Below are positions 13,673 to 52,379 of a DNA stretch of 52,448 nucleotides, one piece after another. Location of the stretch: IMG/VR virus record IMGVR_UViG_3300038393_000730, positions 1 to 52,448 of that record. The stretch is one strand, 5' to 3'. Numbering within the stretch: position 1 is the first letter of the stretch; every line of letters begins with the position of its first letter. This stretch comes from a virus (Duplodnaviria > Caudoviricetes). The position numbers and the translations under genes are program-made. The notes below the pieces were generated by a model. The model did not search any database. It was given only the letters and a program-made list of their open reading frames with translations, and was not told where the DNA came from.

Positions 13673-14713
13673 ATGACCAACACTACCAACCCGAAATGCC
13701 GCGCGACTTTCCCCGGCGAGGCGCTTGGCATCCTTGAGAGCTACCTTGAGCAATGCGCCGTCGAGGCACCGCAAGCGGCCACCACGGAGCAGGCCGGGCC
13801 TCGGCTGACGGTCGAACAGTGCATCCAGCAGTTCCGCATGTACGCAGACGGATGCGACAAACTCGGCAATGCCGAAGGCGCGCGCCAGCTTCGCCTGTGC
13901 GCTGAATTCCTGAGCGAGTATGGCCCTGCGGCCACCACGGCAAGCGCCCCGCAATACGAGAACGTCACCGACCACAGCGGCAAGATCATCGGCGTGCGCA
14001 TGACGAACGCGGACCAGATGCCGAGCTACGGGGCGACCACGGCAAGCGCGAGCGGCGTGGACCTGACCGACTACAGTCAGCCCGTGGTTTACTCGAACAA
14101 CGCAGGCCGCGCCCCAGCACCCAGCCGTGAGGCTGCTGTACCGCAGTTTGGCGTGACCAGCATCCTGCGCTCGATCATCAAGGACGGCTACCTGTCAGAG
14201 ACCAACGTAGGCCGTGCTCGCGCCGCCCTTGCTGGCCGTGATGCCGCACCGCTGGATGAGCTGTGGATGCACGAGGACATGGACCGCGATGCGACCGAAG
14301 CGATCCTCAACCTGCCGGGGAAGGAACTCAAAGCCTACTTCGTGCAGGCCCGCGAGGACGTGGCAACCTGGCGGCGGCGCGCGTTGACGGCGGAAGCCGC
14401 ACTCGCCAAGCCAGCAGCGCCTGTAGTGGACGGGGAGCTTGTCGAAGCGATGAGGCCGCACCTGTTCAAAGCAGATGGCGGCTATACCTGCGATACCGCA
14501 CCAGAACATGTCGCAGCCGCTGGCCACGCCGCCATCGCCGCCGCTCGCAGCGCACCAGTGGGCGAACAGGTCGCTTGGCTGTTTGAGAACCACCAAGGCG
14601 AGCGCGGCACTTCGTTGCTCGCCCATGTGCCGCGCGGCGTAGCGCAAAAATGGCCGCTCTATCTCGCCGCCCCATCGCACCCCGAGCCAGCAGGCGGGAA
14701 GGAGCAGGCATGA
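13673..14713 (+). CDS. Mosaic multi-module accessory protein
   Basis: Modules separated by repeated ATTASA linkers and by boxes A-C shared with 51933-52448. Confidence 0.75.
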   Translation: MTNTTNPKCRATFPGEALGILESYLEQCAVEAPQAATTEQAGPRLTVEQCIQQFRMYADGCDKLGNAEGARQLRLCAEFLSEYGPAATTASAPQYENVTDHSGKIIGVRMTNADQMPSYGATTASASGVDLTDYSQPVVYSNNAGRAPAPSREAAVPQFGVTSILRSIIKDGYLSETNVGRARAALAGRDAAPLDELWMHEDMDRDATEAILNLPGKELKAYFVQAREDVATWRRRALTAEAALAKPAAPVVDGELVEAMRPHLFKADGGYTCDTAPEHVAAAGHAAIAAARSAPVGEQVAWLFENHQGERGTSLLAHVPRGVAQKWPLYLAAPSHPEPAGGKEQA

Positions 14714-15069
14714 GCGTGCTCGACATCGAACAACTGCGCAAGCAGTTCGAAGAAGACTATGCAGCGGCACAGATGCCCGCCGAGTCAGACTGGTTCAGGC
14801 TCGACGCTGATGGCGATTATCGCTACCGCGAAACTGACAGCGCGTGGGAGGGCTACCAACTCGCCGCTAAGCGCATCACCCGCCTGCAGCCCGCACCCAT
14901 TCCAGTGCAAGCGGGGGAGCAGTCGCCCGAGCCCCAGCCGTGCTGCATTTGCGGGGAGGCCACGACTCATTGCGTCGCGGATGAGCCGTTCTGCGACGAA
15001 CACCTGCAAGAGTTCCGCTCCTTCCAGCTAGAAAAGTACGGCGCCGCCATCAAAGCAGGCGGGCAAGGC
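14402..15069 (+). repeat. Linker boxes A-E, left-arm copies
   Basis: A 14402-14439, B 14535-14558, C 14665-14713, D 14887-14919, E 15041-15069; each has an inverted copy in 51398-52379. Confidence 0.95.
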
Positions 15070-15318
15070 GAGCCGGAAGAAATCGACCCCGGCGCACTGT
15101 ACGCTGTCCGCGTCGATAGCCCCTATACCACGGGCTTGACCTATTGGACGATCGGCAAGAACCACGGCGTAGGCTGGATGAACCGCGACGATGGAAGCTG
15201 GGTCGGGCCTGTGCGCGGCGTCGTCGAGTATCACAAGCTGATCGATCCTGAGCGCAGCATCCTTGGGCATATACCCGAAGACGGGGCAGGCGGGCAAGGC
15301 GGGGAGGATGGAAAATGA
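14710..15318 (+). CDS. Mosaic accessory protein with a Zn-finger module
   Basis: AAGGAG SD inside box C; modules separated by boxes D and E; CCICG...FCDEH. Confidence 0.75.
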   Translation: MSVLDIEQLRKQFEEDYAAAQMPAESDWFRLDADGDYRYRETDSAWEGYQLAAKRITRLQPAPIPVQAGEQSPEPQPCCICGEATTHCVADEPFCDEHLQEFRSFQLEKYGAAIKAGGQGEPEEIDPGALYAVRVDSPYTTGLTYWTIGKNHGVGWMNRDDGSWVGPVRGVVEYHKLIDPERSILGHIPEDGAGGQGGEDGK

Positions 15319-15611
15319 GCATCACTACCGAAACAGCGACTGTCTATCGCGGCGGCAGTCGTCGCTGGTTTAGCCTGAAAGCTGCGTGCAATGCCGAAGC
15401 TTGGGCCATCATGCGGCGCAAAGACAAACCGCGCTGCGAATGCGAGCAGGCCGATATCGACTACATCAACGGCGTCAGCCACCTACTCAGCCCGCCCTAT
15501 ACCTGCCGACTGCACGAACACGAGCGGCTGGGGAAACGTCATCGTCGGTTGGCGCGCTTGATCCGCGCCGCCATCACAGCCAAGGAGAACAAGCATGGAA
15601 CCGATCATTAA
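15315..15611 (+). CDS. Hypothetical protein
   Basis: GGAGG SD; ATGA coupling. Confidence 0.65.
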   Translation: MSITTETATVYRGGSRRWFSLKAACNAEAWAIMRRKDKPRCECEQADIDYINGVSHLLSPPYTCRLHEHERLGKRHRRLARLIRAAITAKENKHGTDH

Positions 15612-15918
15612 ATCCCTCGTTGCCACGCTCTCTACTGCCTGCGCCGTGGCCTCGATGTGCTACAGCCCCATGCTGCTGTGGGCGATCGCAATGGGCGCGG
15701 ACTGGCGCTGGGAACTGTTGCACCCCCAGGTTGACCGTATAGCGCCGATGGTGCAGGGCTCGGTGGCGCTCGGCTTCATGGCGATGGCCGCATGCATGTG
15801 TGTGGACGTGGGCGCGGCCTATCCGAAGTTCAAGCCAGTGGCGCTTGGCGGCTGCCTTGTCGCCGCCTGCCTCGTGGCCTTGCACTGGCTGCTGCATGCA
15901 CAGTTCAGCCTGTTGTAA
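15595..15918 (+). CDS. Hypothetical membrane protein (about 3 TM helices)
   Basis: AAGGAG SD; three hydrophobic segments. Confidence 0.6.
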   Translation: MEPIIKSLVATLSTACAVASMCYSPMLLWAIAMGADWRWELLHPQVDRIAPMVQGSVALGFMAMAACMCVDVGAAYPKFKPVALGGCLVAACLVALHWLLHAQFSLL

Positions 15919-16027
15919 CAGTACCTGATACGATATGGCTTCGTATCTGGCCATTGCTTGAGCTATCGCATTACCTGCCAAGCCCGCTTTGCCACCATGA
16001 AGGCATCCCCACTACCAGGATGCCGCC

Positions 16028-16372
16028 ATGTTCCGCCACGCCTCGCTCTACCTTGCCGCCGCGCTGCCGGCGCTTTCCCATGCAGCCCCTGCTTACCAGT
16101 TCGACCTGACCGGCGAGCAGTTCGCCGCGGCACTCGCCAAGCAGCCCGCCGATCCCTTCACCATGCGCGAACGCGACCGGGCCTATGCCTACCTCGATGG
16201 GGTCAAGGATGCGATCGTCGGGAAAGAATGGTGCCCGCCACAGCCGCGCAAGACACATGAACTGGCCTACGACGCTGCTGCCTACATCCGCAGCTTGCAT
16301 GCGGACCTGCGCCGCGGCAATGCCGCCCGGTTGCTCGTGGCCTACCTGGTCGCTACCTCCCCCTGCAAGTGA
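16028..16372 (+). CDS. Rap1a/Tai-type periplasmic amidase immunity protein
   Basis: Sec signal ending SHA-A; LTGEQF, AYLDGVKD, WCPP, NAARLL, C-terminal PCK. Confidence 0.8.
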   Translation: MFRHASLYLAAALPALSHAAPAYQFDLTGEQFAAALAKQPADPFTMRERDRAYAYLDGVKDAIVGKEWCPPQPRKTHELAYDAAAYIRSLHADLRRGNAARLLVAYLVATSPCK

Positions 16373-16379
16373 GGCGCAC

Positions 16380-16856
16380 ATGGCAAAGATCACCTATGCC
16401 GCCCTGCGCAGGCACTACCCTACCCACGAGCAGTTCGACGGCGCCGCCCTGTACGCCAGCATCGGCCACCCGGACAAGGGCAGGAACCCAAGCTGGCAAA
16501 ACACCTGTGCAATCCGTGTCAGCCTGGCCCTGCTGGGCGCCGGGGTGGCGATCACGCCCGGTTTCCTCACCGCGCTGTCCGGTCCCTACAAGGGCCGGCG
16601 CATCGAGTCGCGCCAGAAGATCCTGTCGAATTTCCTGCGCGCCAGGCTGGGCCAGCCCGAGGTCTACCAGAACGGCTACCGCGCCTGGAGCCAGATCCGG
16701 CCGCGCCACGGCATCGTGTCGTTCTACCGCCTCAACGGCGCATGGGACACGCAGGGCCACATCGACTTGATCGAACCTGCCACCATGAACGACCTGCAGT
16801 GCGCCAGCGCCTGCTACTGGTCGTCGTCGGAAATCTGGTTCTGGCCGCTCACCTGA
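16380..16856 (+). CDS. Tae4/Ssp1-family T6SS-type peptidoglycan amidase effector
   Basis: NTCAIRVSLAL (catalytic Cys), GIVSF, GHIDL (catalytic His), C-terminal IWFWPL. Confidence 0.82.
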   Translation: MAKITYAALRRHYPTHEQFDGAALYASIGHPDKGRNPSWQNTCAIRVSLALLGAGVAITPGFLTALSGPYKGRRIESRQKILSNFLRARLGQPEVYQNGYRAWSQIRPRHGIVSFYRLNGAWDTQGHIDLIEPATMNDLQCASACYWSSSEIWFWPLT

Positions 16857-17104
16857 CCCACCATGCATTGCACGTGTTCAATTTCTACAACAGCAACGGG
16901 AATGGGTTGCAATGGGCTTGATCTTGCGCAAATACTGGTCGCCACACTATGACAAAGTGTTACAGGAATTAGAGCATAGCGTTTGATACCATCCCACCAG
17001 CTATCAAAAAAACCAAGATTTCCTTTGATCTTGTTACATACCACTTGCTATCATTGCGCCGGTTTTCAAAACTATTTTAACAATTACTAATTACGGGGTA
17101 GGAA

Positions 17105-17752
17105 ATGATCGTTTTGTGCGGGTGCGAGAAAGGAGGCGTGGGCAAGTCCACGGTCGCCGTCAACCTTGCGGTGGGCCGGGCGCGAACTGGCCGTGATGTA
17201 CTTTTGGTTAATGCAGACAAGCAAGACAGTGCCGAGGAATGGGCAGAAACGCGGCGCCACCTCGGGCACCAGCCGGTGATCCCAGCAGTGGCGATCCGCG
17301 GTCAACGCCTGCGGCATGACGTGGCGGACCTGGCGCGGCGTTACGACGACATCGTGATCGACTGCGGCGGCCGCGATTCGCTGGAACTGCGCTACGCCAT
17401 GAGCATTGCCCACATCCAGATCATGCCGTGCGAACCTTCGCAATTCGATGTAAATACGATGTACAAAATGGACCGGCTCGTATCGGAGGCCAAGATCCAC
17501 AATCCGGCGCTGCGCGCCGTCGCACTGGTGAACAAGGCGCCGACGAATCCGGCGATGGGCGACACCCGAGAAATGCTCGATGCGCTGGCCGACATGCAGC
17601 ACTATGGCGTTCTCGATACGCGCCTGTATGCACGCAAGGCATACCGCCTGTGTGGGCGGGACGGGGTGGCCGTGTTTGAACTGGACAGCCCGGACCCCAA
17701 GGCCACGGCCGAGGTGGAAGCGTTGAACGTGGAAGTGTGGGGGACGGAATGA
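17105..17752 (+). CDS. parA: Plasmid-type ParA partition ATPase
   Basis: Deviant Walker A EKGGVGKST; NADKQ; IVIDCGGRDS; PSQFD; short form without an N-terminal HTH. Confidence 0.9.
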   Translation: MIVLCGCEKGGVGKSTVAVNLAVGRARTGRDVLLVNADKQDSAEEWAETRRHLGHQPVIPAVAIRGQRLRHDVADLARRYDDIVIDCGGRDSLELRYAMSIAHIQIMPCEPSQFDVNTMYKMDRLVSEAKIHNPALRAVALVNKAPTNPAMGDTREMLDALADMQHYGVLDTRLYARKAYRLCGRDGVAVFELDSPDPKATAEVEALNVEVWGTE

Positions 17753-18060
17753 ACCAGAACCGCGGTTTTCGCAAGCCAGGCGTCGCCACCCCGGACGTGG
17801 ACGAATGGGCCAAGCAGGCAGATTCCCAGCCAGCCGATCCGGTGGCCCAGCCGTGGCGCAACGCTGACCCGACGCGCATGCAGCAGTTCCTAGCCCGCAT
17901 GCCAGCGCCCCTGCACGCCAAGCTGACATGGCTCAAGGCAAACCTGCCCGGTGGCCCGTCAATCCAGCAACAGGTGCTCGGTGCTGCGGAAGAGTGGGCC
18001 GACAAGATGATTGCCCAGCTCGAAGCAGAGCGCGAGCGGCGCCGCAACGACAAGCATTGA
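17749..18060 (+). CDS. Putative small centromere-binding partner (type Ib, RHH-like)
   Basis: ATGA-coupled to parA; flexible N-terminus then QQFLARMPAPLHAKL strand-helix pattern. Confidence 0.6.
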   Translation: MNQNRGFRKPGVATPDVDEWAKQADSQPADPVAQPWRNADPTRMQQFLARMPAPLHAKLTWLKANLPGGPSIQQQVLGAAEEWADKMIAQLEAERERRRNDKH

Positions 18061-18071: not shown

Positions 18072-18263
18072 ATGCGTACCGCCTTCTACTGCAGTGCGTT
18101 CCTTGGCTTTTTCGTCTACCTTGTCGCCACCACCCACCTGTCGCTGCTGAACCTGATCGGCTGCCTGATGGCTGCAACCGCCCGCACCGTGCTCCTTGGC
18201 GTGGTGCTCACGCCGCTGGAATTGCTGGTGCAGGCAGTGCGGAACCGGATCAACGGTTCTTGA
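18072..18263 (+). CDS. Small membrane protein
   Basis: GGAG SD; two hydrophobic stretches. Confidence 0.5.
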   Translation: MRTAFYCSAFLGFFVYLVATTHLSLLNLIGCLMAATARTVLLGVVLTPLELLVQAVRNRINGS

Positions 18264-21200
18264 TGCGGTCCAGCCGCGCCTGCTCCTGGTCATCGGCGTG
18301 GCGCGCGAACTTCTGCACGGCCGCGCGGCTGATGCGGTCGGGCTGCTCGATGGCGCGCAGGGTGCGGCGGGCTTCCTGCACGCTCTGGCCGGCATCGACG
18401 AGCTTCTGTTCGGCCTCGTCGAACTGCTCGCGCCGTACCAGTTCGCGCACGTCCGGCAGGACATCACGGATCGCAGCTTCATGCTCGCGGCTGGCATAGC
18501 GCATTTCCGCCACTGCGTCACCGCCCGACAGCTTCGACACCGACAGCCCAGTTGCCGTACCCAGCAGTTTCGCTTCGTCCATGTTGAGGTCGCGGCCCAG
18601 CAGATGCACCTTGCCGCCCTGGTCCTTGTCGCCCGCCATCACATGCTTGAGTGCCACCATGTCATCGAACGGCACCTGTGACTTGAGGATATGCCCGGCA
18701 ATGGCCCCGACCTGCTGCATGGCGCCATCGGTTTCGAGGAACACGCGGCGCCCCTGGAAGTCCTGGTTCTCCATCACTTCGGCAACGGCCCGTGCCATGG
18801 GGCTCATCTTGTTGTGCAGCAGGTGAAGGCCCGTTCCAATGCCGAGGTACTGCTTCATTTCCTCGACCACCTTGCCGGTCGGCAGGCGCAGGTAGTAGGT
18901 ATTGCCCTGCTCGTCCTCCCCGATGCGTACCCGGTCTTCCTTGCCGTGCGGGTTGTCGTCGGTTTGCGAGAGCGCCTGCAGGTTGGCGAACGGGTGGCGC
19001 AGGAAGGCGGCTGGCAGGCCCAGCTTGCCCCACTGCGGCCCGAGGAATGCCATCGGGTTGTCAGCGTCCAGCTTCACGCCCAGCCGCGCAGTGCGCTCCT
19101 TGAGGTCTTCCCACCACTGCTGGCCGCTCTGCCCGGCAAACCACGCCTGTGTGAGCGAAGTCAGGGCGGCCATCGCGGCAAAGTCCACGAGCAGGATCGC
19201 CCCGGCCTTTTTGAGCGTGACCGACTGCGCCTGATCCAGTACCTTGCCTGCGGCATCCGTCGCCTCGATGCCGGTCTTGCCAAGTGCCCGCTGCGCCTCG
19301 ATGGTGCGCAGCCTGATCTGTGCCTGCACGTCCTTGGGCAAGCCCATGAACGGGTCTTTCATCGCCCCGAGGTTGGTCATCGTGAACGACTTGGAGAACA
19401 GGGTGACGTTCATCAGCGCATGGGCCGCTTCGCTGATCGCCTCGTGCGGGACGGCGCCGGCATAGCGGTTTGCAAAAAACGTGGCGATCCGCGTTGCCGT
19501 ATCCTGGTCCAGTCCCTTGTCGATGAAGTGGTTGCGCATCTGCACCGCCATCCCGGCCTGCATGTCCGCGATACGGTCCCACAGCAGGGTTTCGTGCCAG
19601 AAGTGGCCCACGGCATCAATCGTGCGGCGCGCGGCATCCCCGGCCTTGACGTGTGCAAGGTCGAACACGGCGCCGAGCGCCTTGGCCATGATGCTGCGCC
19701 CCGGCTGGATGCCGTTGGCGATCGCCGGCAGGTCCGGGTTCATGCCGCGCCCGCCCATCGGCACCAGCCCCTTGTCCACCAGTTCGCCCATCAGCGCGTG
19801 GTCCTGGCGCACCTTGTGCCCGAGGAAGTAGCTGTACAGCCCGCCCGTGGCGATGTTCTTGAGGTTGCCCTTCCAGCCCATTGCCGTGACCATCGACGGC
19901 AGCGCCTTGCCCCAGATGACCATGTTGTGGGTCAGCGGGGAGACCATGATGAGGCTCATCGAGAGCCCCTTCATTTCCATGTAGCCGCGGTAGACCGCAT
20001 TCGGCTCGGTCGTGAACACCGATTTGAGCGGCCCGATGAAATCCTTGTGGACGAACAGCGGGCGCGCTTCCAGCACGGGCTTGCCCTCGGCATCAACTAC
20101 CGGGCGTAGTTGCTCGGCCACGCTGTCCCTGACGCGGTAGCTGGCCAGCTTCTCGCCATCCTTGGCATAGACGCCATCGGGCTTCACGGTGTAGCCGCGC
20201 ACCGCGAGTTTGACTTCATCGGCCGGTTGCCAGTCCATCTTGGGCATCCAGCGCTTCATGGCCGGATGGTCGAAGGTGGCGTAGTTCCTGTCGCCCGTGT
20301 CCGAATCGCGCACCAGATCCTGCCCCGACACCTGCCCGTGGGCCTTGATCTGGTTGATGAGCGTACGCCCGGCAATCGCCTTTTCCAGTTGCGCCATCGC
20401 CATCGGCATGACGCGGATGTTCTTGACGTATCCGGCGTCCTCGCCGTGCTTGGCCTTGAGTGCTGCTTCCGATTCGGCCGTGGTGTCGTACTTGCGTTCC
20501 TTGGTCGAACTGGCCGAAGTGCGCAGGTTACGCGCTTCCTTGGAGAATTCGGCAGGGCCGGAATCGAGCCGGTCGGCCACGCCATCGGCATAGATGCGCG
20601 CAGCCACGCGAGGCGTCCAGAACGCCACGCCATCGCCAGACACCAGCCCCGCATCCTTGGCCTTGGCCCACAGTTCCTCGCCGTAAGCGTGCAGCAGTTC
20701 GACGGTGGCGCGCTGGTTCGGCGTCAGCGAGGCGAGGCCCAGCGTATCCGAAGTCTTGCCTTCGCGGCGCAGGTCGTTTTCCTCGTCGGCCGCGCGCCAC
20801 ATTTTCTCAAGCTGCTCGTCGGTGTAGTGCTTGGCCAGCACCTTGTCGAATGCGGCCCACTGCAACTGCGCCTTGCGCATGCTGTTGGCGAAGTCCTTGG
20901 CGAATGCCTGGCCGTGCTCGCTGCCGGCGCTCATCGGCATCACCAGCATCTTCGTGTGGAACGCTGCCGAGGCCAGCGCGCCTTTCGGGATCTGCACCAT
21001 GCGCGAGAGGCGGTCTTTCAGCTCGTCGGCGCGCTGCTGGGAGAAGCGGATGTCATTGGTGTAGGGCGAGAAGTCGCCATTGTTATCAGCCGCTGATTTT
21101 ATTTGGGCAGGATCGAATACCGCTATTTCATTGAGTTCGCCATTGTTTTCGATGAAAAGCGCGTCGCGGCGAATTGATGGGTTGTCGCCTCGTGCCTTTT

Positions 21201-24200
21201 TCGAAACTCCATCGAAAATGACTGGGTGTTCCGCCTTGATATATACGGCGTACTTGTGCGGCCCGTAACCCTCGTACATTTCCGCATGCGGAGTAAAGAA
21301 CGTGCCATTCCGGAAGGACATATACCCAACAGGTTCATTTTGCTGTTGCGCCGCACGCCACTTTTCAACCTGCGCTTTTATTTCATCCAGTGACATATCG
21401 CCGTTGAGTAGCGAACGGCCAAACGGCAGGAACTCCTGAATCCCTTGCGTGTGGGTGTTGTGATAAACGACTAGCGGTTTGCCCTGCTCGTCCACCACCT
21501 TGCTATCGCCAAACCAGCGCCAGAAGTTGCGCACTCCTTCTTCGGTTGCAGCAAGCGGCCTACCGCTGCTGTTGACGACTGGGCGCTCGATGCCATCCAC
21601 CTCGACCGTTTTACGCTCATCCGACAGTCGCAGTTCTGCCCTGCGCTCCTCGATCAGGTAAGGGTAATTGCGCTCGACTTCTTCACGCGGCACGATGTGC
21701 GTGTCTTCCGCATAGGCGTGCTCGGACCTGGCGCGGCGCAGGGCCGTTTCCGCATCCGGTGCTGCTACCTTTTCCACCATGCTATGACCAGTGGGGAGGG
21801 TGACGCGGACGAAGTGTGAGTTATCGCGTTCGTCGGAGAGCTTGGCATTCTGCGGGTCGTAACCCCATTCCAGAATCGAATCGCCGTTGGTGTAGATATC
21901 CTTGGCCTTGACCATCTTCGAGATGATCTTGTAGTCGCCATCGAAGCGCGACTCACCGTGCTCCTGCGCATAGCCACGGCTGATCGTTACCCAGTCGCCC
22001 GGTCGAATGTCGGCGTTGATATCCTTCGGCACCGCACGGAAAATCATCACATCATAGTCAGGATTGCCCTTGGCCATGTTGGCGATGCGGAATGCCTGCT
22101 TGTCGAGCGCATCATAACCTGTGCCGTAGTAGCGCGACCCGTTGCTGCTGTACACGTCATCAGGATAAATCTGTCCGTCGCCGGTCAGGTCGTGAAGCGG
22201 TGCGCCGCTGTCGGCCATCGGTGGGCGGTGCTCGTCCTGCCAGTCTTCGCGTTCGCCTGATTGCAACTCCGGCGCATGCGATTCTTCCTTTACATCAAAC
22301 GGGGCCTTGATCTTGCCCCGTCCTTCCATGTAATGCCCGATGGCTTCCGCTGCCGCCGCCCTGATCTTGTCGAGGTCGGCCACGAACTCATCGGTTGCAA
22401 AGCGCTTGCCAGAAACAAGCGAAGCGATGCGGTCGATGAAGTCGCGCAGGTAGGCCATCACCTTGCCTGCCGTGCCCTTGTCCTTGATGTTGCCCAGCAG
22501 GTCGCGCAGGAAATCGGGCTCGGCAAAACGGTTGCCGAACAGGTCTGCCGCGATTTCTTCCCAGTGCCCCGCTTCGTCAAGGTGCGGCTGGTTGATGTAC
22601 TGCTGCAATGCCTTGAACTGCTCGGACGGCACCAACGGTTTCACGGCATCAATGAACGCGCCACGCAGCTCGTCGGGCATCTGGTGGAAGAATTCATGGC
22701 CTGCCACAACATGCCATGCCGCGTCACCGTGGCCCACGTTCACGAACAGCAAGTCAGGATGCTTGGGCGAGGCAAAGCCGTCCAGGCGCTTCTTGTTGCC
22801 GTCCTGCCGGAAGAACACGACTTCCTTGCCCAGCGCGCGGCCCAGCCCTTGCACGAGTGCGGCATCTTCCGGCGCAATGGTTTTGCCATCGCGGCCCAGC
22901 GTGGACGGATCAACGACTGCCAGCTTGCCATGAACGGGATTCGGTTTCATGCCGTTGATGATAGCAGTGGCGGTGGCAACCTGTTCGGGCAGGGATTTCG
23001 CCTGAACGGTGTAGACCGGGCTGCCATCATCCGTCATCCAGCGCGGCGTGACGACTTCGGGCGGTTCGGCCAGCCGTGCGCTCGGGTTCTTCTCAACGGT
23101 GTAGTCGCGCTTGGCCAGCGAGTCGTAAATGCGTGCGGCATCGGTCGTCACGGAATCGTCCGACGTGAAGCGCAGGCCGCGCCGGGCTGCTTCGCTAATT
23201 GCGCCCTCGTACATCGCGCGCATCTTGCCGCTGCTGCTCTGGCCGAACTTCAGCCCGTTGTCGGCATAGGTCGGGAACAGTCGCCCGTCCTTGATGCCCA
23301 GTTCCAGCATGCCACGCCCACCTTCGCCGCTGTCGAACTCAGCGGTAATGCCCGGCATCTTCTTGCCGTTGGAGTCTTCCACGGTCGTGTCGCGGAACGC
23401 CGGCCTGTCCGCAGTCGGCAACGGCTGAGTCTCGCCCTCCCGCGCGTGCGCGGGCATGGTATCAAGGCTGGAGGGTTGCCCCGTCAGTGCCTGCTCGCCG
23501 TTGGCGGCGCCGTCTGCAACAGGAACATGACTTCCAGCATCGGGCGCAGCGAGTCCGGTATCAGCGCGTTCGCCGCCATCAACTGCTCCAGGCACCCCAG
23601 TTGCTCGCTCCACTGCGGGCACGAGTTCACCAGCATTGCCATTGCTTCGTCCCACTCCATCATCGACTGGTAGTGCAGGGGCAGGCAGTCGGGCGTCATT
23701 GGTGCTCTCCGGCTCGGGTTGGGCGACAGGTGCGGTATCGGCCACCTCGGCAGGCTTGGCCTCGGGCGGGCGGATCGCTTTGAGGATGGCGGCCACATCG
23801 GCATCATTGCCCTTGGCGATGGCATCGGTATTGATCGACGGCACGGCAGCGGTGGCCGCGGCAATGGCCTGATCCACGTCCTGCGCCTTCGCAATATCGG
23901 CCACGGTGGCGCGCGGGGTCATCGCTTCGCCCACCGCATGGGGAACGCGCAGCACGCCAAAGCCCAGCGCCTGCGCCGCCATGTCCTTCGGGTCAATCCA
24001 TGCGTTGTTGTTCTGCTGGCCCGCGATCAGGTCGGTGGCCTTGTCGGATACCGTGTTCAGGGCCGAAAAGCCCACGCCTTCGCCCGCCGCGGCGCCAAGC
24101 TGTCCAGCCGCACCAAGCAATCCGCCTTCGCCTGCCGCCTTGCCGATCACGCCGCCAATGCCACGCGCGGCAATCGATGGGGCCAGCAGGTTGATGCCCG

Positions 24201-24999
24201 CCGCTTCCGCCGCATGGGCCAGCGCCAGGTTCTCGCTTTGGCCTTGCGCGATCTTGGCCTTGTAGGTGTCGCGGAACGCTGGAATCGCAAACAGGCCCGT
24301 GTTCGCCGCCAGTTGCGGCACCAGTTCGCTGGGCACTGCCAAAGCGGGGGCAATGCCACCCACGAGCGAGGATGCGCGGCCCACGATGGTGTCGCCGCCG
24401 AGTTCGTCGTGCTCGCGTTCCTCGATTGCACGCCGCGCCGCGTCCAGCCCGGCTGCCGTATCATCAGCACCGACGAGGGAACTCAGTGCCGCGCCCGCCC
24501 CGGCAAGCCCACCCATCAGCCCACCCGTCACGTTGCCTCCGATTTCCTGCGCCAGTGTCGGGGCCGGTTTCGGGGTGGCGATCCGGTCAGGTTGCTGGCG
24601 CGCAGGCAGTTGCGGCACCACGCCGTTTGCCGGGCCTTGCAGCCTCTCGTTCAGGCGCACATCGAACATCGCCTCGGGCGAAGCCAGTTGCTTGAACTTG
24701 TCCTGCACCGCATTGCCGCGCGCCTCGGTCCGGGCTGCCTGCGCCTTGTCGTACTGGGACAGGGCCACGTCCAGCGCAGACTGGTCCGCATCCGGGTTAT
24801 TGGCCAGGAACTGCTTGGCATAGTCGGCGCGCGGCATGGTGGTCGCGAAATTGCCGCCCGTCCCGGCAAGCCCGACTTGCTGGAGGAACTGGTCGCGCGG
24901 CACGTCCGCATAGAACTTGGCGTGCAGGGCATCGGCCAGTTCCAGGTCCGGCACGTCCTTGTAGTCGGGATTGTTCTGCTTGAACTCGGCAATGTCCAT
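18250..24999 (-). CDS. Giant internal-virion/ejection protein with polyvalent-protein domains
   Basis: 2249 aa, last late gene; GNAT-like, HEFFH metallopeptidase, PGDWVT ART-like and NFWRWFGDSKVVD...PLVVYH ART-PolyVal-like segments. Confidence 0.85.
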   Translation of the reverse strand: MDIAEFKQNNPDYKDVPDLELADALHAKFYADVPRDQFLQQVGLAGTGGNFATTMPRADYAKQFLANNPDADQSALDVALSQYDKAQAARTEARGNAVQDKFKQLASPEAMFDVRLNERLQGPANGVVPQLPARQQPDRIATPKPAPTLAQEIGGNVTGGLMGGLAGAGAALSSLVGADDTAAGLDAARRAIEEREHDELGGDTIVGRASSLVGGIAPALAVPSELVPQLAANTGLFAIPAFRDTYKAKIAQGQSENLALAHAAEAAGINLLAPSIAARGIGGVIGKAAGEGGLLGAAGQLGAAAGEGVGFSALNTVSDKATDLIAGQQNNNAWIDPKDMAAQALGFGVLRVPHAVGEAMTPRATVADIAKAQDVDQAIAAATAAVPSINTDAIAKGNDADVAAILKAIRPPEAKPAEVADTAPVAQPEPESTNDARLPAPALPVDDGVGRSNGNAGELVPAVERATGVPGAVDGGERADTGLAAPDAGSHVPVADGAANGEQALTGQPSSLDTMPAHAREGETQPLPTADRPAFRDTTVEDSNGKKMPGITAEFDSGEGGRGMLELGIKDGRLFPTYADNGLKFGQSSSGKMRAMYEGAISEAARRGLRFTSDDSVTTDAARIYDSLAKRDYTVEKNPSARLAEPPEVVTPRWMTDDGSPVYTVQAKSLPEQVATATAIINGMKPNPVHGKLAVVDPSTLGRDGKTIAPEDAALVQGLGRALGKEVVFFRQDGNKKRLDGFASPKHPDLLFVNVGHGDAAWHVVAGHEFFHQMPDELRGAFIDAVKPLVPSEQFKALQQYINQPHLDEAGHWEEIAADLFGNRFAEPDFLRDLLGNIKDKGTAGKVMAYLRDFIDRIASLVSGKRFATDEFVADLDKIRAAAAEAIGHYMEGRGKIKAPFDVKEESHAPELQSGEREDWQDEHRPPMADSGAPLHDLTGDGQIYPDDVYSSNGSRYYGTGYDALDKQAFRIANMAKGNPDYDVMIFRAVPKDINADIRPGDWVTISRGYAQEHGESRFDGDYKIISKMVKAKDIYTNGDSILEWGYDPQNAKLSDERDNSHFVRVTLPTGHSMVEKVAAPDAETALRRARSEHAYAEDTHIVPREEVERNYPYLIEERRAELRLSDERKTVEVDGIERPVVNSSGRPLAATEEGVRNFWRWFGDSKVVDEQGKPLVVYHNTHTQGIQEFLPFGRSLLNGDMSLDEIKAQVEKWRAAQQQNEPVGYMSFRNGTFFTPHAEMYEGYGPHKYAVYIKAEHPVIFDGVSKKARGDNPSIRRDALFIENNGELNEIAVFDPAQIKSAADNNGDFSPYTNDIRFSQQRADELKDRLSRMVQIPKGALASAAFHTKMLVMPMSAGSEHGQAFAKDFANSMRKAQLQWAAFDKVLAKHYTDEQLEKMWRAADEENDLRREGKTSDTLGLASLTPNQRATVELLHAYGEELWAKAKDAGLVSGDGVAFWTPRVAARIYADGVADRLDSGPAEFSKEARNLRTSASSTKERKYDTTAESEAALKAKHGEDAGYVKNIRVMPMAMAQLEKAIAGRTLINQIKAHGQVSGQDLVRDSDTGDRNYATFDHPAMKRWMPKMDWQPADEVKLAVRGYTVKPDGVYAKDGEKLASYRVRDSVAEQLRPVVDAEGKPVLEARPLFVHKDFIGPLKSVFTTEPNAVYRGYMEMKGLSMSLIMVSPLTHNMVIWGKALPSMVTAMGWKGNLKNIATGGLYSYFLGHKVRQDHALMGELVDKGLVPMGGRGMNPDLPAIANGIQPGRSIMAKALGAVFDLAHVKAGDAARRTIDAVGHFWHETLLWDRIADMQAGMAVQMRNHFIDKGLDQDTATRIATFFANRYAGAVPHEAISEAAHALMNVTLFSKSFTMTNLGAMKDPFMGLPKDVQAQIRLRTIEAQRALGKTGIEATDAAGKVLDQAQSVTLKKAGAILLVDFAAMAALTSLTQAWFAGQSGQQWWEDLKERTARLGVKLDADNPMAFLGPQWGKLGLPAAFLRHPFANLQALSQTDDNPHGKEDRVRIGEDEQGNTYYLRLPTGKVVEEMKQYLGIGTGLHLLHNKMSPMARAVAEVMENQDFQGRRVFLETDGAMQQVGAIAGHILKSQVPFDDMVALKHVMAGDKDQGGKVHLLGRDLNMDEAKLLGTATGLSVSKLSGGDAVAEMRYASREHEAAIRDVLPDVRELVRREQFDEAEQKLVDAGQSVQEARRTLRAIEQPDRISRAAVQKFARHADDQEQARLDRIKNR

Positions 25000-49008: not shown

Positions 49009-49026
49009 GTGGGGCTCCATTGGATG

Positions 49027-49256: not shown

Positions 49257-49273
49257 GCGGCACCTTCGGGAAT

Positions 49274-49304: not shown

Positions 49305-49340
49305 CTTGCAGCGACAATTATCTAGTGTGCTATGAACGAC

Positions 49341-49369
49341 AGTTTAACCGGATGATTGCTGGTTTTCAA
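49341..49369 (-). promoter_or_regulatory. Putative late promoter (pR'-like)
   Basis: TTGAAA-17-TAAACT shortly upstream of a terminator. Confidence 0.6.
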
Positions 49370-49389
49370 CTACTTTTTACTATTCGGCG

Positions 49390-49767: not shown

Positions 49768-49916
49768 GCGCCACCAATCCCGTCGATGACCGCCAAAACA
49801 GGGCCTTTACGCTGACCATTCGTGGCCAAACCAACCATGCTCCGTGCTAATGCATAGTTCTCTGTATCCACTTTCCAGCAAGCCAGCTTCCCGTTGATCC
49901 GGCAGTAGACCTTCAT
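49764..49916 (-). CDS. 50-aa hypothetical protein (MKVYCRINGK...)
   Basis: Read manually; TAAGGGGT SD; ATGA-coupled. Confidence 0.55.
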   Translation of the reverse strand: MKVYCRINGKLACWKVDTENYALARSMVGLATNGQRKGPVLAVIDGIGGA

Positions 49917-49929
49917 GCACACCCCTTAT

Positions 49930-49959
49930 AAAAAGACACCCGCCAAGCCTCAGCGGGCG
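49930..49959 (-). terminator. Rho-independent terminator at the 3' end of the structured RNA
   Basis: CGCCCGCTGAG-GCTT-GGCGGGTG region followed by TCTTTTT. Confidence 0.7.
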
Positions 49960-50410
49960 AAAGTCCTAACGGACGGAGCAAACTGTTGCGGTGCCGGGGG
50001 CGCGACTATCCCGGTGTTTCCGCGAGCTTCACCACACAGAGCCGCCGAGCAGGCATCGCAGGCGCTATCCTGCGATTCAATGCGGCTTGCTCGTTGCCGT
50101 CGATACAGATTTCTTTTGCCCGGCTCTGTGTGGCCCCTCGTATCGTGAGGGCTACGCGCCACGGGCACCGTCCCGCATACACCGGAGTCGAACCGGCTAC
50201 ATTCCGAACTTATGGCGATCAGTGAGAGTCGAACTCACCACTCGGCTGGCGGCTACGGTTTAACCCGTGAACCCACGTAAGTCCGTGGTGACAGTCGCCA
50301 TGCGGGTGGTGCCGGACTTTCACCGGCTCGCCGCTTATCCCGAAGTTACGCGGTCGCGCCTCTTTCGAGGACTTAAGCCCGATGCTTGCGCAGAGCGGGA
50401 CCCCACGGTG
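49930..50410 (-). ncRNA. Putative large structured non-coding RNA with a tRNA-like domain
   Basis: Nested long-range helices, three T-loop hairpins, and GAAA, GCAA and CUUCGG tetraloops, all reading on the minus strand; no convincing ORF. Confidence 0.7.
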
Positions 50411-50417
50411 GAAGACG

Positions 50418-50675
50418 TTACAAAAACATTACGAACCCATTGGGAACGCGGCGGCTGATACCGTTGAGCAGGTGCTTGCGCTTGCGGGCCGATGCCGTGC
50501 GGCTGGACACGGTACGCGGCTTGTTGGCCGGAACGTCTTTGTACAGCGAATGCCAGTAGCACCCATCCACGGATGGATTGAATTCTGTGAGGCGGCGACG
50601 TTTTCGCGTCCTGCCGGGCATTTGCGGTGTCATGATGAAGCGGAAGTTCTCGATGGTGCCAATCTCTGCTTTCAT
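50418..50675 (-). CDS. Small basic protein with a capsid-like N-terminal motif
   Basis: TGATG-coupled to the Q-like gene; EIGTIENFRFIMTPQMP. Confidence 0.55.
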   Translation of the reverse strand: MKAEIGTIENFRFIMTPQMPGRTRKRRRLTEFNPSVDGCYWHSLYKDVPANKPRTVSSRTASARKRKHLLNGISRRVPNGFVMFL

Positions 50676-51232
50676 CACGCCGCCCTGTCAAACAACCACG
50701 CCAGCTCGCCCGTCACCGCGTTCTGCGCTTCCGTTTCCAGAGTTTTCAGGGCATCCCATATCTTTTTCTTTGCATCGAACCCGGTAGAACGCGGCACCTT
50801 GCGGCGCTCGAATTCGCGGGTCAGGCTCACCGAGCGGTCGAAGTACGCAGCCAGGATCGCGGCGCGCGTGGCCGAATCGACGCCAGCCGGGGCTTTCTCG
50901 AAACTCCAGTGCAGGATCGCCGCCATTGCCTCGCGGTAGGCTTGCGATACCTTCTCGCCGGCGCAGCAGGGTTTCCCACAGGTGCAGGGCTCGGCCTTTG
51001 GGGCGTACCGGGCAGCGATGCAGGCGCGCGCCATCGGGGGCATGCGCTCGACCGCGGCGAGGATATAGGCCGCTTGTGCCGAACCATCCAGCCCGCCCAG
51101 TCCCTTGCCGCCGCCGATGTTCGCGCCCTTGAGCAAGCGGCCCATCGGGGAAACCGGATACTGCTGGCTGGAGAAGTTGAACGCAAACGCCAGCGCGGCG
51201 GCGGGGCTGTCGAACAGTTGCTCTTGGCTCAT
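50675..51232 (-). CDS. Putative late regulator / Q-like antiterminator
   Basis: Position between the nin region and late leader; AALAFAF, GKGLGGLDG.AQA, PCTCGKPCC, C-terminal HTH-like segment. Confidence 0.55.
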   Translation of the reverse strand: MSQEQLFDSPAAALAFAFNFSSQQYPVSPMGRLLKGANIGGGKGLGGLDGSAQAAYILAAVERMPPMARACIAARYAPKAEPCTCGKPCCAGEKVSQAYREAMAAILHWSFEKAPAGVDSATRAAILAAYFDRSVSLTREFERRKVPRSTGFDAKKKIWDALKTLETEAQNAVTGELAWLFDRAA

Positions 51233-51255
51233 GCTGTGCATTGGCGTTTTATGGC

Positions 51256-51291
51256 AAAAAAATACCCCGCACCGGGGCCGGTAAGCGGGGT
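51256..51291 (-). terminator. Rho-independent terminator upstream of the Q-like gene
   Basis: ACCCCGC...GCGGGGT followed by ATTTTTTT. Confidence 0.7.
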
Positions 51292-51321
51292 GGAAAACTA
51301 CACAGGAGAAGTACAAAATCG

Positions 51322-51350
51322 ATACTATGTCATATCATACTGCTTGTCAA
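51322..51350 (-). promoter_or_regulatory. Putative sigma70 promoter
   Basis: TTGACA-17-TAGTAT; GTATGATATG operator-like motif in the spacer. Confidence 0.7.
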
Positions 51351-51394
51351 TGCGAAATTGTTCCTGTTGGTAATAAGGGGCGGCGCCATACCCA

Positions 51395-51769
51395 TCAGCC
51401 TTGCCCGCCTGCTTTGATGGCGGCGCGACGATGTAAGGTAGAGCGCGCGAGCCAACCCGCCCAGTACAGCGTCCACTCCCTGGCGCCCACTGGATTACGC
51501 TCGTAGTCGAACGCTGTGACCGTGTACTCATGCTCTGCGTGCTTGCGTTCTTCTTCGATAGGCAGCACCTCCCCCGCTTGCACTGGAATGGGTGCGGGCT
51601 GGGTGGTGCGGCGGTTCCAGGCGACGATGCAGTCTGCTTTCGCTGTGCGCTTGCCGGTCGATACATGGCAGGTCGGGCACCATGTCGCGTACAGCTTCGG
51701 GTGTCGGTCGGTCTCCACGGTCTCAGCGTGACCACCGCAAAACGGGCACGGTTTCAGTTCGTCAGTCAT
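51395..51769 (-). CDS. Lar-like restriction-alleviation domain fused to a second module
   Basis: LKPCPFCGG...CPTC...AWNRR, then box D linker QPAPIPVQAGE, ending in box E. Confidence 0.75.
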   Translation of the reverse strand: MTDELKPCPFCGGHAETVETDRHPKLYATWCPTCHVSTGKRTAKADCIVAWNRRTTQPAPIPVQAGEVLPIEEERKHAEHEYTVTAFDYERNPVGAREWTLYWAGWLARSTLHRRAAIKAGGQG

Positions 51770-52379
51770 GCCTGCTCCTTCCCGCCTGCCAGCGCACGGC
51801 GAATGCGCCCCAGCTCGGCGAGTATCAACATCAACAGGATGGCGATGACCGGCAGTGGCCTGTCTTTGACCATCAGCGCAATGCATCCAGCGGCGATGAT
51901 GATGTCGCCCAAGTTGAATGATAGATTGCGCATCACGCACCTTCCTTCCCGCCTGCTGGCTCGGGGTGCGATGGGGCGGCGGCGAGCAGCCCTTGCCACA
52001 TGCGGCGCAAAGCTTGAGTTCCGCTGTAGTTCGTGTCGTTCACGGTCATGTCGATACCGTCAGGGCCGCCAGCGGCGTCAATGCGCCGCTTTCCGTAGTG
52101 CGCAGCCAAGGCGCTATAGATCATTTCGCCGGTCAGCTTCTTCGGCAGTTGAATCCACCCTTCCGGCACGCCCCCTGGTGCGCTGCGAGCGGCGGCGAGG
52201 CTGGCTTCGTTGAGCGTGATGTAATCGCGGACAGCGGATCCACGGCCAACGGCAAAGCATGCGGCCCCGTACGCGCTCATGTGCTTCGCTCGGTAGGCGT
52301 ACACCCCCGGTAACAAGCACTCGGGCTTCGGCAGCGGCGGCAGCTCCCCGTCCACTACAGGCGCTGCTGGCTGGGCGAG
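51398..52379 (-). repeat. Linker boxes A-E, right-arm copies
   Basis: A 52342-52379, B 52175-52198, C 51943-51981 and 51766-51789, D 51569-51601, E 51398-51426. Confidence 0.95.
51766..51933 (-). CDS. 55-aa membrane protein between duplicated box C
   Basis: Coupled at both ends; two hydrophobic segments; ends in AGGKEQA. Confidence 0.6.
   Translation of the reverse strand: MRNLSFNLGDIIIAAGCIALMVKDRPLPVIAILLMLILAELGRIRRALAGGKEQA

Follow-up and report, generated by a model that had tools for sequence, protein, structure and literature searches.

An ordered set of in-frame boxes on two inverted arms

The subject of this study is an array of short, ordered DNA boxes in a tailed phage of the class Caudoviricetes, which is represented by the IMG/VR record IMGVR_UViG_3300038393_000730. 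The window analysed was the entire record (52,448 nt), which is classed as linear and has a CheckV completeness of 86%. A sequence-only reading of this DNA had described five boxes, A to E, that recur in the same order and frame on two arms of opposite strands and separate unrelated mini-domains. All five were recovered with 1 mismatch in 38 nt for box A and none in B (24 nt), C (39 nt), D (33 nt) and E (29 nt). A repeat search of the window returned them as its top inverted pairs, namely I1 (box A; 14386-14439/52342-52395, 54 nt, 89%), I3 (B; 14528-14564/52169-52205, 37 nt, 89%), I2 (C; 14665-14703/51943-51981, 39 nt, 100%), I4 (D; 14887-14919/51569-51601, 33 nt, 100%) and I5 (E; 15041-15069/51398-51426, 29 nt, 100%). 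A sixth pair, I8 (14690-14713/51766-51789, 24 nt, 100%), covers a Shine-Dalgarno (SD) sequence with an ATGA junction, to which the sequence-only reading had merely alluded, and was named box C′; it showed 0 mismatches over 24 nt in the fuzzy scan and extends the common order to A-B-C-C′-D-E on both arms. A chance origin of the boxes is excluded, as box D gave 2 matches in the window and 0 in 100 dinucleotide shuffles, and 84 24-mers are common to the window and its own reverse complement compared to 0 in each of 20 first-order Markov simulations.

Translating both arms confirmed the common frame and the proposed linker peptides, and box C of arm 1 continues into an SD, a stop and the next start (GGAAGGAGCAGGCATGA). 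The peptides between the boxes showed no blastp similarity between the arms. The Lar-like zinc ribbon that had been assigned to one arm was found in arm 2 only, at residues 3-55 of protein P0005, which match PF14354 (Lar) with an E-value of 1.4e-11 and 44.9 bits at a cut-off of 28.6, as well as phrog_599; judged by this profile score, the module belongs to the Lar restriction-alleviation family. Arm 2 consists of three genes (Table 1). The product of the first, P0003, equals the database protein P0077 once its first 3 residues are removed. The second gene, coding for P0004, lies between C and C′, so this slot of arm 2 holds an inserted whole gene; P0004 had no Pfam or PHROG match.

The scaffold extends over six coupled early genes

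The ordered, in-frame scaffold with unrelated mini-modules in its slots had been recognised correctly by the sequence-only reading, but its size was understated: about 21 boxes are present at 12.24-15.59 kb, which is about four times what had been noticed, and the five boxes represent the 3′ end. BLAST of the window against two further IMG/VR records (G488 and G489) and the prophage of Massilia agilis JCM 31605, an isolate genome, resulted in a colinear ladder of matches of 20-48 nt with 93-100% identity over window positions 12240-15587, whose gaps were unalignable. The boxes (20-48 nt) are found within six translationally coupled early genes or at their borders, and the translated rungs are about 21 different linkers rich in Ala, Pro, Gln and Thr. 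Boxes 9, 9′, 10, C/C′ and E′ are located at gene borders with an SD and overlapping stop and start codons, the others in frame inside open reading frames (ORFs). All intragenic slots have lengths that are multiples of 3 and contain no stops, and their lengths vary between arrays. Partial second copies of boxes (9/9′, 12/12′, C/C′ in arm 2, and E/E′) each bracket one extra module or small gene.

Table 1. Positions of the array, its boxes and other features in the window. The linker column gives the translated rungs. MASS, Massilia agilis JCM 31605 prophage; SD, Shine-Dalgarno sequence; SSAP, single-strand annealing protein.
Feature	Position	Strand	Content or window peptide	Linker	Basis or identity
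O-like replication protein, protein named without function, DNA methyltransferase	3440-571	-			PHROG/Pfam
Early operon	8563-18060	+	SSAP, exonuclease, arm 1, Tae4-like amidase-domain protein, ParA-like protein		
SSAP	9117-9788	+			phrog_3290, E 2.5e-49
YqaJ-type exonuclease	9785-10573	+	SSAP partner		PF09588, E 1.1e-13; phrog_149
Array gene 1 (P0006, 413 aa)	12051-13292	+	Beads on a string; linkers 1-4 and 7-9		ORF, linker map
Box 1	12240-12259	+	..DLSGLTR..	SVDLSGLTRY	20 nt, 100% to G488, G489
Box 2	12403-12441	+	TKAAQPAAGQVP	ATKAAQPAAGQVP	39 nt, 97% to G488; partial in G489, MASS
Box 3	12572-12608	+	VPPVPAAEQPG	VPPVPAAEQPG	35 nt, 97% to G488; two halves match MASS
Box 4	12700-12742	+	DAHLARQAQAGAV	DAHLARQAQAGAV	43 nt, 100% to G488; 97% to G489, MASS
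Linker 5				AAPTLGSTPQAE	
Linker 6				AAPVAQEGEQSAK	
Box 7	12892-12926	+	AAPTSTDASAH	AAPSSTDASAQA	34-35 nt, 91% to G488, G489
Box 8	13058-13096	+	AQAAQADVRDA	AQAAQADVRDA	30 nt, 100% to G488; 96% to MASS
Box 9	13247-13294	+	C-terminal tail RTPADDSQPAVGGA, SD, stop overlapping next start; gene border	TPADDSQPAVGGA, then stop	42 nt, 100% to G488; 48 nt, 94% to MASS
Cys-rich small gene (62 aa)	13292-13480	+	Between box 9 and 9′		
Box 9′	13438-13471	+	..ADDSQKGGGDA tail, SD, next ATG; partial duplicate of box 9		34 nt, 97% to G489, there ending gene 1
Small gene (65 aa)	13467-13664	+	Past box 9′		Start inferred from SD AAGGAGG
Array gene 3 (P0001, 346 aa)	13673-14713	+	Linkers 10-17 including A, B, C		
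Box 10	13657-13707	+	SD and MTNTT start	(MTNTT)TPDSSATSG	25 nt, 100% to G488; 17-19 nt in G489, MASS
Box 11	13765-13799	+	APQAATTEQAG	APQAATTEQA	34 nt, 100% to G488; 32 nt, 100% to MASS
Box 12	13924-13947	+	PAATTASA	SPAATTASASG	24 nt, 100% to G488, G489, MASS
Box 12′	14036-14055	+	ATTASASG; partial duplicate of 12 bracketing extra module		19-20 nt, 100% to box 12 counterpart in G488, G489, MASS
Box 13	14105-14138	+	GRAPAPSREAA	APAPSREAA	32 nt, 100% to G489; 97% to MASS
Box 14	14212-14269	+	RAALAGRDAAPLDE	ALAGREAAPLDER	43-51 nt, 88-93% to G488
Box A (linker 15), arm 1	14396-14439	+	AALAKPAAPVVDGEL	RAALAQPAAPVVDGEL	93-98% to G488, G489, MASS, arm 2
Box B (linker 16), arm 1	14535-14564	+	AAARSAPV	AAARSAPV	Repeat and fuzzy scans, BLAST
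Box C (linker 17), arm 1	14665-14703	+	AAPSHPEPAGGKE; end of P0001	AAPSHPEPAGGKE	
Box C′ (linker 18), arm 1	14686-14733	+	SD, ATGA stop/start overlap, first P0002 codons MSVLDIE	MSALDIEKE	
Array gene 4 (P0002, 202 aa)	14710-15318	+	Module-D-Cys-rich module-E-module-E′		
Box D (linker 19), arm 1	14887-14920	+	QPAPIPVQAGE	TQPAPIPVQAGE	Repeat and fuzzy scans, shuffle test
Box E (linker 20), arm 1	15041-15070	+	AAIKAGGQG	AAIKAGGQG	Repeat and fuzzy scans
Box E′	15286-15323	+	AGGQGGEDGK tail, SD, ATGA overlap; partial E duplicate at border of P0002 and next gene		Direct repeat D19; 25 nt, 100% to MASS
Array gene 5 (98 aa)	15315-15611	+	Carries box 21		phrog_21496
Box 21	15564-15587	+	RAAITAKE	RAAITAKE	
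Late genes	51316-18250	-	Small terminase (47738-47055), large terminase, on to 2249-aa ORF		
Terminator-like site	51278-51264	-	GC hairpin and T-run, about 45 nt past promoter-like site, before late genes		
Promoter-like site	51350-51322	-	Strong sigma-70-like TTGACA-17-TAGTAT, between arm 2 and late genes		10/12 matches
Arm 2 gene c (P0005, 124 aa)	51395-51769	-	Lar module-D-module-E-stop		
Box E, arm 2	51398-51426	-			Repeat search, fuzzy scan
Box D, arm 2	51569-51601	-			Fuzzy scan, shuffle test
Box C′, arm 2	51766-51789	-	Precedes Lar gene		
Arm 2 gene b (P0004, 55 aa)	51766-51933	-	Between C and C′; hydrophobic by eye		
Arm 2 gene a (P0003)	51933-52448	-	A-module-B-module-C; 5′ end cut by record end		
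Box C, arm 2	51943-51981	-	Then GGTGCGTGATG, stop/start junction to 55-aa gene		
Box B, arm 2	52169-52198	-			Repeat search, fuzzy scan
Box A, arm 2	52342-52388	-			65 nt, 98.5% to MASS

We found no common motif or Chi-like word across the boxes, as the best shared 9-mer occurred in 3 of 21. An SD-like motif was dropped as a general box property, because by eye it was confined to A, D and the boxes at gene borders. The start of the 62-aa gene at 13292 was inferred from an SD and a TGATG overlap, the frame given in the ORF list being longer (13211-13480), and the ATG of the following gene (13467) lies within its last codons. The 62-aa ORF is very basic (CGSCGGYCGG..C), and G488 contains a different Cys-rich ORF at the corresponding place. 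For P0002, the only near-length homologue in a 5.8-billion-protein database was the protein itself.

The AlphaFold2 model of P0001, built on a mosaic alignment (A2), is of low overall confidence (mean predicted local distance difference test (pLDDT) score 64, predicted template modelling score 0.33). Its stretches with pLDDT values below 50 (residues 31-40, 88-93, 112-129, 139-160, 189-200 and 309-343) coincide with five of the seven linkers, namely 11, 12 (both copies), 13, 14 and 17, and confident helical or beta modules are predicted between them. The model fits a beads-on-a-string architecture of P0001.

Distribution and order of the boxes in other genomes

Cataloguing box matches and inter-box contents in viral and bacterial sequences, a check suggested by the sequence-only reading, yielded ordered boxes with differing contents. 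In IMG/VR, an exact pattern for box D matched one contig (L001, from record G488), a 19-mer of box E matched 5 viral loci including G488 and G489, and box C (32 nt) had 0 matches; the box E matches in L002-L004 were rejected as chance occurrences of IKAGGQ in AT-rich phages. A 20-mer of box D had 0 matches in genome contigs, and box A was matched in the genome of Massilia agilis JCM 31605. When up to 3 mismatches were allowed, box D was present in 1 of 401 genomes at the family level of the host and C′ in 1 of 110 at the genus level, both being Massilia agilis, so the canonical boxes are rare among species-representative genomes. The cores of boxes 9 (18 nt) and 11 (22 nt) were found in 16 and 4 IMG/VR contigs, respectively. 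Among the 15 new loci scanned from these cores, L026, L028, L037 and L038 lacked canonical linkers, and L033 was not counted as a carrier, its lone match to the short linker 16 being taken as chance. Nine further regions were then added to the comparison; G499 contained no canonical linker either.

All 14 arrays with at least two canonical linkers, which come from 13 records, showed an ascending linker order. The carriers include the one Massilia agilis prophage and four records that have direct terminal repeats and are 100% complete. Judging from their identical spacing, G492, G496 and G497 are probably one phage. The C′-D-E part (up to 3 mismatches) was absent from five further complete records and is rarer than the remaining scaffold. 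At the protein level, a word-indexed search with the product of gene 1 yielded 10 proteins at E≤1, including the query and the G488 protein, which have single modules or an identically ordered set of linkers in common with it. With P0001 as the query, an exhaustive HMMER search returned 66 proteins at E≤1e-3 from a 50%-clustered library, including the query and P0077; most of them match through single modules, whose places vary in proteins of 50-708 aa. Where a database protein has two or more linkers, these ascend in order, except for P0063, where the gene-end linker 9 follows linker 17.

What the carriers have in common is largely confined to the boxes. Over all 10 pairs of five arrays, we obtained 152 high-scoring segment pairs (HSPs) with a median length of 29 nt (25th-75th percentile 23-35), and the single HSP longer than 67 nt represents an ordinary gene upstream of the array (398 nt, 90%). 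Only 3 of 44 window proteins had a tblastn match with E<1e-10 in G488, G489 or the 60-kb Massilia region, and by these comparisons the array carriers are otherwise unrelated. One IMG sample number appears in the names of three different array-bearing contigs, L030 (G491), L005 (G489) and L023/L027 (G494), which means that carriers differing in their modules occur together, as exchange would require. No RNA run was listed for the array.

The sequence-only reading had taken the identity at synonymous sites as a sign of DNA-level homogenisation; a special homogenisation between the two arms is not supported by their sequences. Boxes A-E are identical at 163 of 174 positions between arms 1 and 2 and at 166 of 174 between arm 2 and the Massilia prophage; arm 2 thus resembles the Massilia copy more closely than it does arm 1, and the similarity of the boxes is population-wide rather than intragenomic. 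The two-arm layout was found in this window alone, and only one array is present in each of the 3 other carriers of boxes A-E. These data bear on the idea of an intragenomic two-arm system, in which either gene conversion between the arms or inversion of the 37-kb segment would switch module expression. The inverted orientation of the arms agrees with it, as do the 100% identity of C, C′, D and E over 24-39 nt, which would be enough for SSAP-type pairing by the values quoted in PMC3945230, and the differently regulated contexts of the arms (early operon versus just upstream of the late-promoter-like site). We nevertheless regard such a system as very improbable, considering the closer relationship of the arm 2 boxes to the Massilia prophage, the single arrays of the other A-E carriers, the missing C′ in five further records, and the observation that no module is common to both arms. 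In addition, the best-supported joints of arm 1 in metagenomes (see below) include no strand-changing joint, which is a weak argument because contigs drop rare variants.

Contents of the slots

The modules between the boxes comprise 18-140 aa and are almost always different. Grouping 83 slot instances from 15 slots with at least 3 instances each by single linkage at a normalised local score of 0.4 resulted in 80 distinct module types, and types were shared only among the three probably identical contigs and between the Massilia prophage and P0063. Fixed inter-box contents in relatives, which the sequence-only reading had named as evidence against its proposal, were thus not found. Among the 89 modules of the first five arrays, only 6 blastp pairs were detected at E<0.05. 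For 102 modules of at least 18 aa, 15 pairs were similar at E<1e-3, of which 4 carried the same slot label and 11 different ones, some of the latter representing merged slots. The proposal of slots filled with unrelated modules is therefore supported, but the slots are not strict, as some homologues cross slots and genes. Lar modules occur in slot 10-11 of the Massilia array and in slot C′-D of both arm 2 and the Massilia array.

The suggested anti-defence role of the modules would be based on this one Lar domain family, as no other module matched Pfam or PHROGs in our scans. Sub-threshold hits to tRNA-synt_His, PilJ and CATASP were disregarded as weak, and the ESM Atlas gave only leads below 0.8, which were clusters with fusions of Lar and DUF551. 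Single modules of gene 1 recur in the otherwise different proteins P0007, P0008, P0009, P0010 and P0012, and one gene 1 module is shared with contig G498 at 89.6% identity over 183 nt, starting at box 8. We also noted a recurring module with the signature (P)EGW/GY-x-L-V/M-P-x-x-(P)T-x-E/A-M in several slots and both array genes: it is present in P0003 (around residues 95-130; around 52160-52060, minus strand), P0009, P0011, P0014, P0018, P0020 and the Massilia array, and received no Pfam or PHROG name in the scans made.

Conservation of the box DNA

Identical linker residues were encoded by the same codon, including A-ending ones, in 969 of 1101 pairwise comparisons, which are not independent of each other, while the G+C content at third codon positions (GC3) of the linkers was 0.69-0.72. 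As controls, three shared proteins showed the same codon at 132 of 214 identical residues, and the gene adjoining the array at 50 of 66; with so little else in common between the carriers, few controls were available. The high identity at synonymous sites claimed before was therefore reproduced, but it is only moderately above that of an ordinary adjacent gene. From these comparisons, we conclude that the boxes are identical by descent.

These values have to be considered for a reading in which the linkers are passive. The peptides would then be conserved because the proteins need them, e.g. as flexible spacers, polyprotein processing sites, docking motifs or SD and translational-coupling signals, and modules would be replaced by illegitimate recombination, with selection keeping the in-frame products; the boxes would be a leftover and not the site of exchange. 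In agreement with this, the linker DNA is conserved no more than other shared DNA of the region, boxes 9, 9′, C, C′ and E′ contain real SD and stop/start signals, and modules found in different slots require non-homologous or microhomology events anyway. However, illegitimate replacement would carry in foreign flanks, whereas the same box occurs between different module pairs in every carrier, which implies that the donors must already carry boxes. Constraint at the protein level alone explains neither the shared A-ending codons in a GC3-rich genome nor the single order of 21 different linkers in all 14 arrays, and an SD-like motif is missing from most boxes. Because exchange between boxes leaves the origin of the modules and the cross-slot cases unexplained, the passive-linker explanation keeps its place, and we consider it unlikely.

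Module variation in natural populations

Two runs of soil and rhizosphere metagenomes from two studies (X1 and X2), which contain the stretch or portions of it, were mapped on window positions 11600-16000, and X1 may be the source sample of the window record. The read depth of X1 was about 10 over the window's own modules and peaked in the bins containing boxes, with 170.8 at box 9 (bin 13217-13363), 102.1 at box 9′ and 108.6 at box 13 (bin 14099-14245). Contigs that fitted only partly amounted to 36 of 75 in X1 and 14 of 19 in X2, and the share running on unlike the window was 0.47 and 0.87, respectively. Many joints jumped from one box to the next; for example, an X2 contig with a depth of 105 joined box 14 to box A with 119 foreign letters in between. 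Logan unitigs (k=31) of the window phage end at boxes. Many co-occurring box-bearing genomes thus carry other modules, and such arrays are hard to assemble.

The same difficulty raises the question of whether the arrays, or at least arm 2, are assembly artefacts, i.e. chimeric joins at short repeats of co-occurring phages. The record is indeed a linear, 86%-complete metagenomic one that ends 60 nt from box A, and k=31 unitigs break at boxes shared by many co-occurring genomes. Nevertheless, we hold an artefact to be extremely unlikely, since the same ordered scaffold is present in the isolate genome of Massilia agilis JCM 31605 and in four direct-terminal-repeat records of 100% completeness, and every slot is in frame without stops. 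Moreover, boxes of 24-48 nt are shorter than ordinary reads, which should therefore be able to phase adjacent modules. For arm 2 in particular, a mis-join at a box is possible.

Proposed exchange of modules at the boxes

The explanation we favour, and regard as probable, is that homologous recombination between phages at the unique linker boxes swaps modules in frame. The anatomy of the array, the conservation and colinearity of the boxes, the diversity of the modules and the population-level variants are observed directly, and recombination at the boxes would be the mechanism behind them. The scaffold would belong to temperate phages of soil Oxalobacteraceae, in which six coupled early genes downstream of recombination genes would encode small autonomous modules joined by about 21 linkers. 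An exchange between co-resident phages, or between a phage and a prophage, would start in one box and end in a later one; because each box is unique and the order is fixed, it would replace the intervening modules in register and in frame. After many such events in a population, the scaffold would be nearly constant and its contents would hardly ever recur. Slots would be gained or lost when boxes of partial similarity exchange unequally, and the pairs 9/9′, 12/12′, C/C′ and E/E′ are possible footprints of such events. Arm 1 represents a full array in the leftward early operon and arm 2 a second, at least partial copy of the 3′ end of the scaffold with other modules. The process may be driven by diversifying selection on modules for host takeover or anti-defence.

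The SSAP, which is encoded in the same operon 2.3 kb upstream of the array, is a candidate recombinase judging from its PHROG match (a Pfam scan gave no match for this protein), and together with the YqaJ-type exonuclease it could perform the exchange. In PMC3945230, the minimal efficient pairing segment is put at 23-27 bp in the case of Redβ and at 31-34 bp in that of RecA, and the same source attributes lambdoid phage mosaics mainly to homology-driven exchange via Rad52-like recombinases. The box size, with a median shared length of 29 nt and 24-39 nt exact between the arms, fits the Redβ-type minimum. Recombination genes are located upstream of the array in G488 (ERF and a single-strand DNA-binding protein) and in the Massilia prophage (RdgC) as well. 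In the latter, a 345-aa protein with DUF7666 and collagen-triple-helix repeats is encoded upstream of the RdgC gene and the array (L020:4574-5611, minus strand). The lack of a common word among the boxes and of a site-specific recombinase points to general homologous recombination.

Several points weigh against exchange at the boxes. All evidence is comparative, with no recombinant observed directly; the window is an 86%-complete metagenomic contig; and the comparison of recombination genes covers three carriers (the window phage, G488 and the Massilia prophage). The excess of codon identity is modest, namely 0.88 for the non-independent linker comparisons versus 0.76 for the neighbouring gene and 0.62 over the 214 control positions, and the linker DNA (87-95% identity in protein-defined windows) equals the neighbouring gene (89.3%) and the shared module (89.6%). 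By these measures, the boxes are under no demonstrably stronger nucleotide constraint than other shared DNA. Linkers A and B lie in confident helices of the P0001 model and not in disordered stretches, and the model itself is of low overall confidence. Modules that occur in different slots or genes, such as slot 3-4 of P0014 and slot 10-11 of P0023 (79% over 29 aa) or slot 4-5 of P0011 and slot 7-8 of P0015 (89% over 35 aa), would not be predicted from box-to-box homologous exchange. Finally, nearly all modules are unique, and exchange among the known arrays cannot alone explain where they come from.

A more far-reaching version of the exchange model is possible but doubtful: the scaffold may be an evolved diversification device rather than a by-product, with unique tags sized to the pairing minimum of an SSAP. 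The tags would stay alike across unrelated phages because only tag-bearing modules are tradable, and the phage community would assemble combinatorial, multi-headed host-takeover or anti-defence proteins in frame. Such a device, acting on protein domains, would be the phage equivalent of integron cassettes or of the minicassettes used in antigenic variation, and arm 2, located before the late promoter, would be a scaffold seeded in a new expression context.

Genome context of the array

The layout of the genome was derived from PHROG and Pfam scans of a subset of the ORFs (Table 1). In a phage GenBank collection, neither a DNA match to window positions 8-18 kb nor a tblastn match to P0002 was obtained, and the window phage has no named relative there because its large terminase is at most 45% identical to those of known phages. 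PF00589 (integrase/tyrosine recombinase), PF00239 (resolvase/serine recombinase) and PF00078 (reverse transcriptase) had 0 matches in the 86%-complete window, while the control run with the PF00589 scan gave matches in all 14 genomes. The record, which thus lacks a tyrosine or serine recombinase, codes for a ParA-like partition protein (phrog_164) at 17105-17752 (plus strand). The window phage may be a plasmid-type prophage, or its integrase may be located in the missing 14% of the genome.

The early operon also codes for a 223-aa protein (16185-16856, plus strand), whose C-terminal half matches the type VI secretion system amidase effector Tae4 (PF14113, E 1.9e-15). Its gene is placed away from the lysis genes, and the protein could be an endolysin-type amidase or the product of a cargo gene. 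The 2249-aa ORF (18250-24999, minus strand) is the last of the late operon, converging on the plus-strand early operon, and presumably codes for a very large tail or host-recognition protein. The layout of promoter and hairpin before the late genes resembles a lambdoid late promoter with its terminator, and the Lar-module gene of arm 2 would then occupy the usual position of a Q-type antiterminator gene. Within 11.4-18.3 kb, the numbers of promoter-like (1 vs. 1.5) and terminator-like sites (6 vs. 6.1) were not above those of shuffles.

Both record ends (1-247 and 52388-52448) lie inside minus-strand ORFs. We dropped the possibility that the record is a closed circle, as the end ORFs are 1 nt out of frame and the record is linear and 86% complete; a homologue bridging both ends was not found in a local search. 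Upstream of box A of arm 2, the record continues for 60 nt to its right end, which points to an assembly that broke off in the repeat tangle of the array.

Relation to known systems and implications

Short conserved sequences mediating phage mosaicism are an old idea. For lambdoid phages, PMC3029335 and PMC3945230 describe short conserved boundary sequences and relaxed homologous recombination by Rad52-like proteins, and the part of PMC3029335 dealing with mosaic joints states that conserved boundary sequences are rarely found there. The array is similar in having short conserved DNA between exchangeable units of temperate phages, the exchange in lambdoid phages being credited in these sources to SSAPs, for which short or diverged homology is sufficient. 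A further parallel is that mosaicism is strongest in accessory early regions, and boxes 9, 9′, C, C′ and E′ truly mark gene borders. The 152 short HSPs of the 10 array pairs are likewise flanked by non-homologous DNA. A position at gene borders, however, applies only to boxes 9, 9′, 10, C/C′ and E′: the array consists of about 21 in-frame peptide-linker boxes in fixed order, about 100-200 nt apart and mostly intragenic. Its units are modules of 18-140 aa instead of genes or gene blocks, and the scaffold is common to otherwise unrelated genomes.

The T-even adhesins gp37 and gp38, as described in PMC3157838, have conserved glycine-rich motifs that separate hypervariable segments, and exchanges take place in these motifs or close to them. 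As in the array, conserved motifs and hypervariable segments alternate in one reading frame, and shuffling yields chimeric proteins. In the account given there, the conserved motifs of gp38 form a single-domain structural core whose variable loops set the host range, with 4 slots, whereas the conserved parts of the array are mostly linkers modelled at low confidence that connect separate modules of early non-structural proteins in about 20 slots. No adhesin was matched in the Pfam and PHROG scans, and the array lies in the early operon beside the SSAP and exonuclease genes.

The PeSL cassettes of T4-type phages, in which conserved short sequences flank variable accessory ORFs and modular shuffling has been proposed (PMC2839356, PMC4122927), resemble the array in combining short conserved sequences with small, highly variable units. 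In the descriptions covered by these sources, PeSLs are one repeated non-coding regulatory motif between genes, whereas our boxes are all different, coding and order-setting. We rejected PeSL cassettes as an explanation, since the boxes are coding and without a common motif, and promoter and terminator signals within the array were not above shuffles. Polyvalent proteins of phages and conjugative elements, portrayed in PMC5512222 as having 2 to 15 domains in variable architectures and as thought to be deployed in host conflicts, share the multi-module architecture, and Lar is the only domain recognised among the array modules scanned. As far as that source goes, they are defined by their multidomain architecture, in contrast to the tiny modules and the nucleotide-level linker scaffold found here.

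Integron or gene cassettes were rejected because PF00589 had 0 matches in the window and the boxes are unique coding sequences. A shufflon or invertase was discarded based on 0 matches to PF00589 and PF00239 and the missing shared box core, although such a gene could be missing from an 86%-complete record. Against a diversity-generating retroelement stand the 0 matches to PF00078 and modules that vary in length and are unalignable rather than point-mutated. In Neisseria, gene conversion of pilE by pilS minicassettes produces antigenic variation from silent donor copies within one genome, and polymorphic toxins (CdiA with its VENN motif, Rhs) swap toxin and immunity modules by recombination at conserved junction motifs. 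In these systems, short conserved sequences also supply the homology for in-frame replacement, but they are intragenomic, whereas exchange in our case appears to occur between phages, with no silent donor locus shown.

A keyword search of open-access texts returned no description of an ordered in-frame linker scaffold in phage early genes. The combination that appears to be undescribed consists of about 21 ordered in-frame boxes in several early genes of otherwise unrelated phages, whose slots are almost all filled differently. Descriptions of phage mosaicism usually concern genes or gene blocks, whereas here conserved sequences are located at essentially every joint and within reading frames. 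A caution for assembly is that de Bruijn graphs are fragmented by such arrays, so that chimeric or truncated viral contigs may arise from soil metagenomes. If recombination at the linkers is confirmed, the array would offer a directly testable model of in-frame domain shuffling in phages, a rich natural source of small modules from early genes (80 types among 83 instances) that could be screened against bacterial defence systems, and a natural design rule, i.e. unique linker overlaps of 25-45 nt, for combinatorial protein assembly in vivo.

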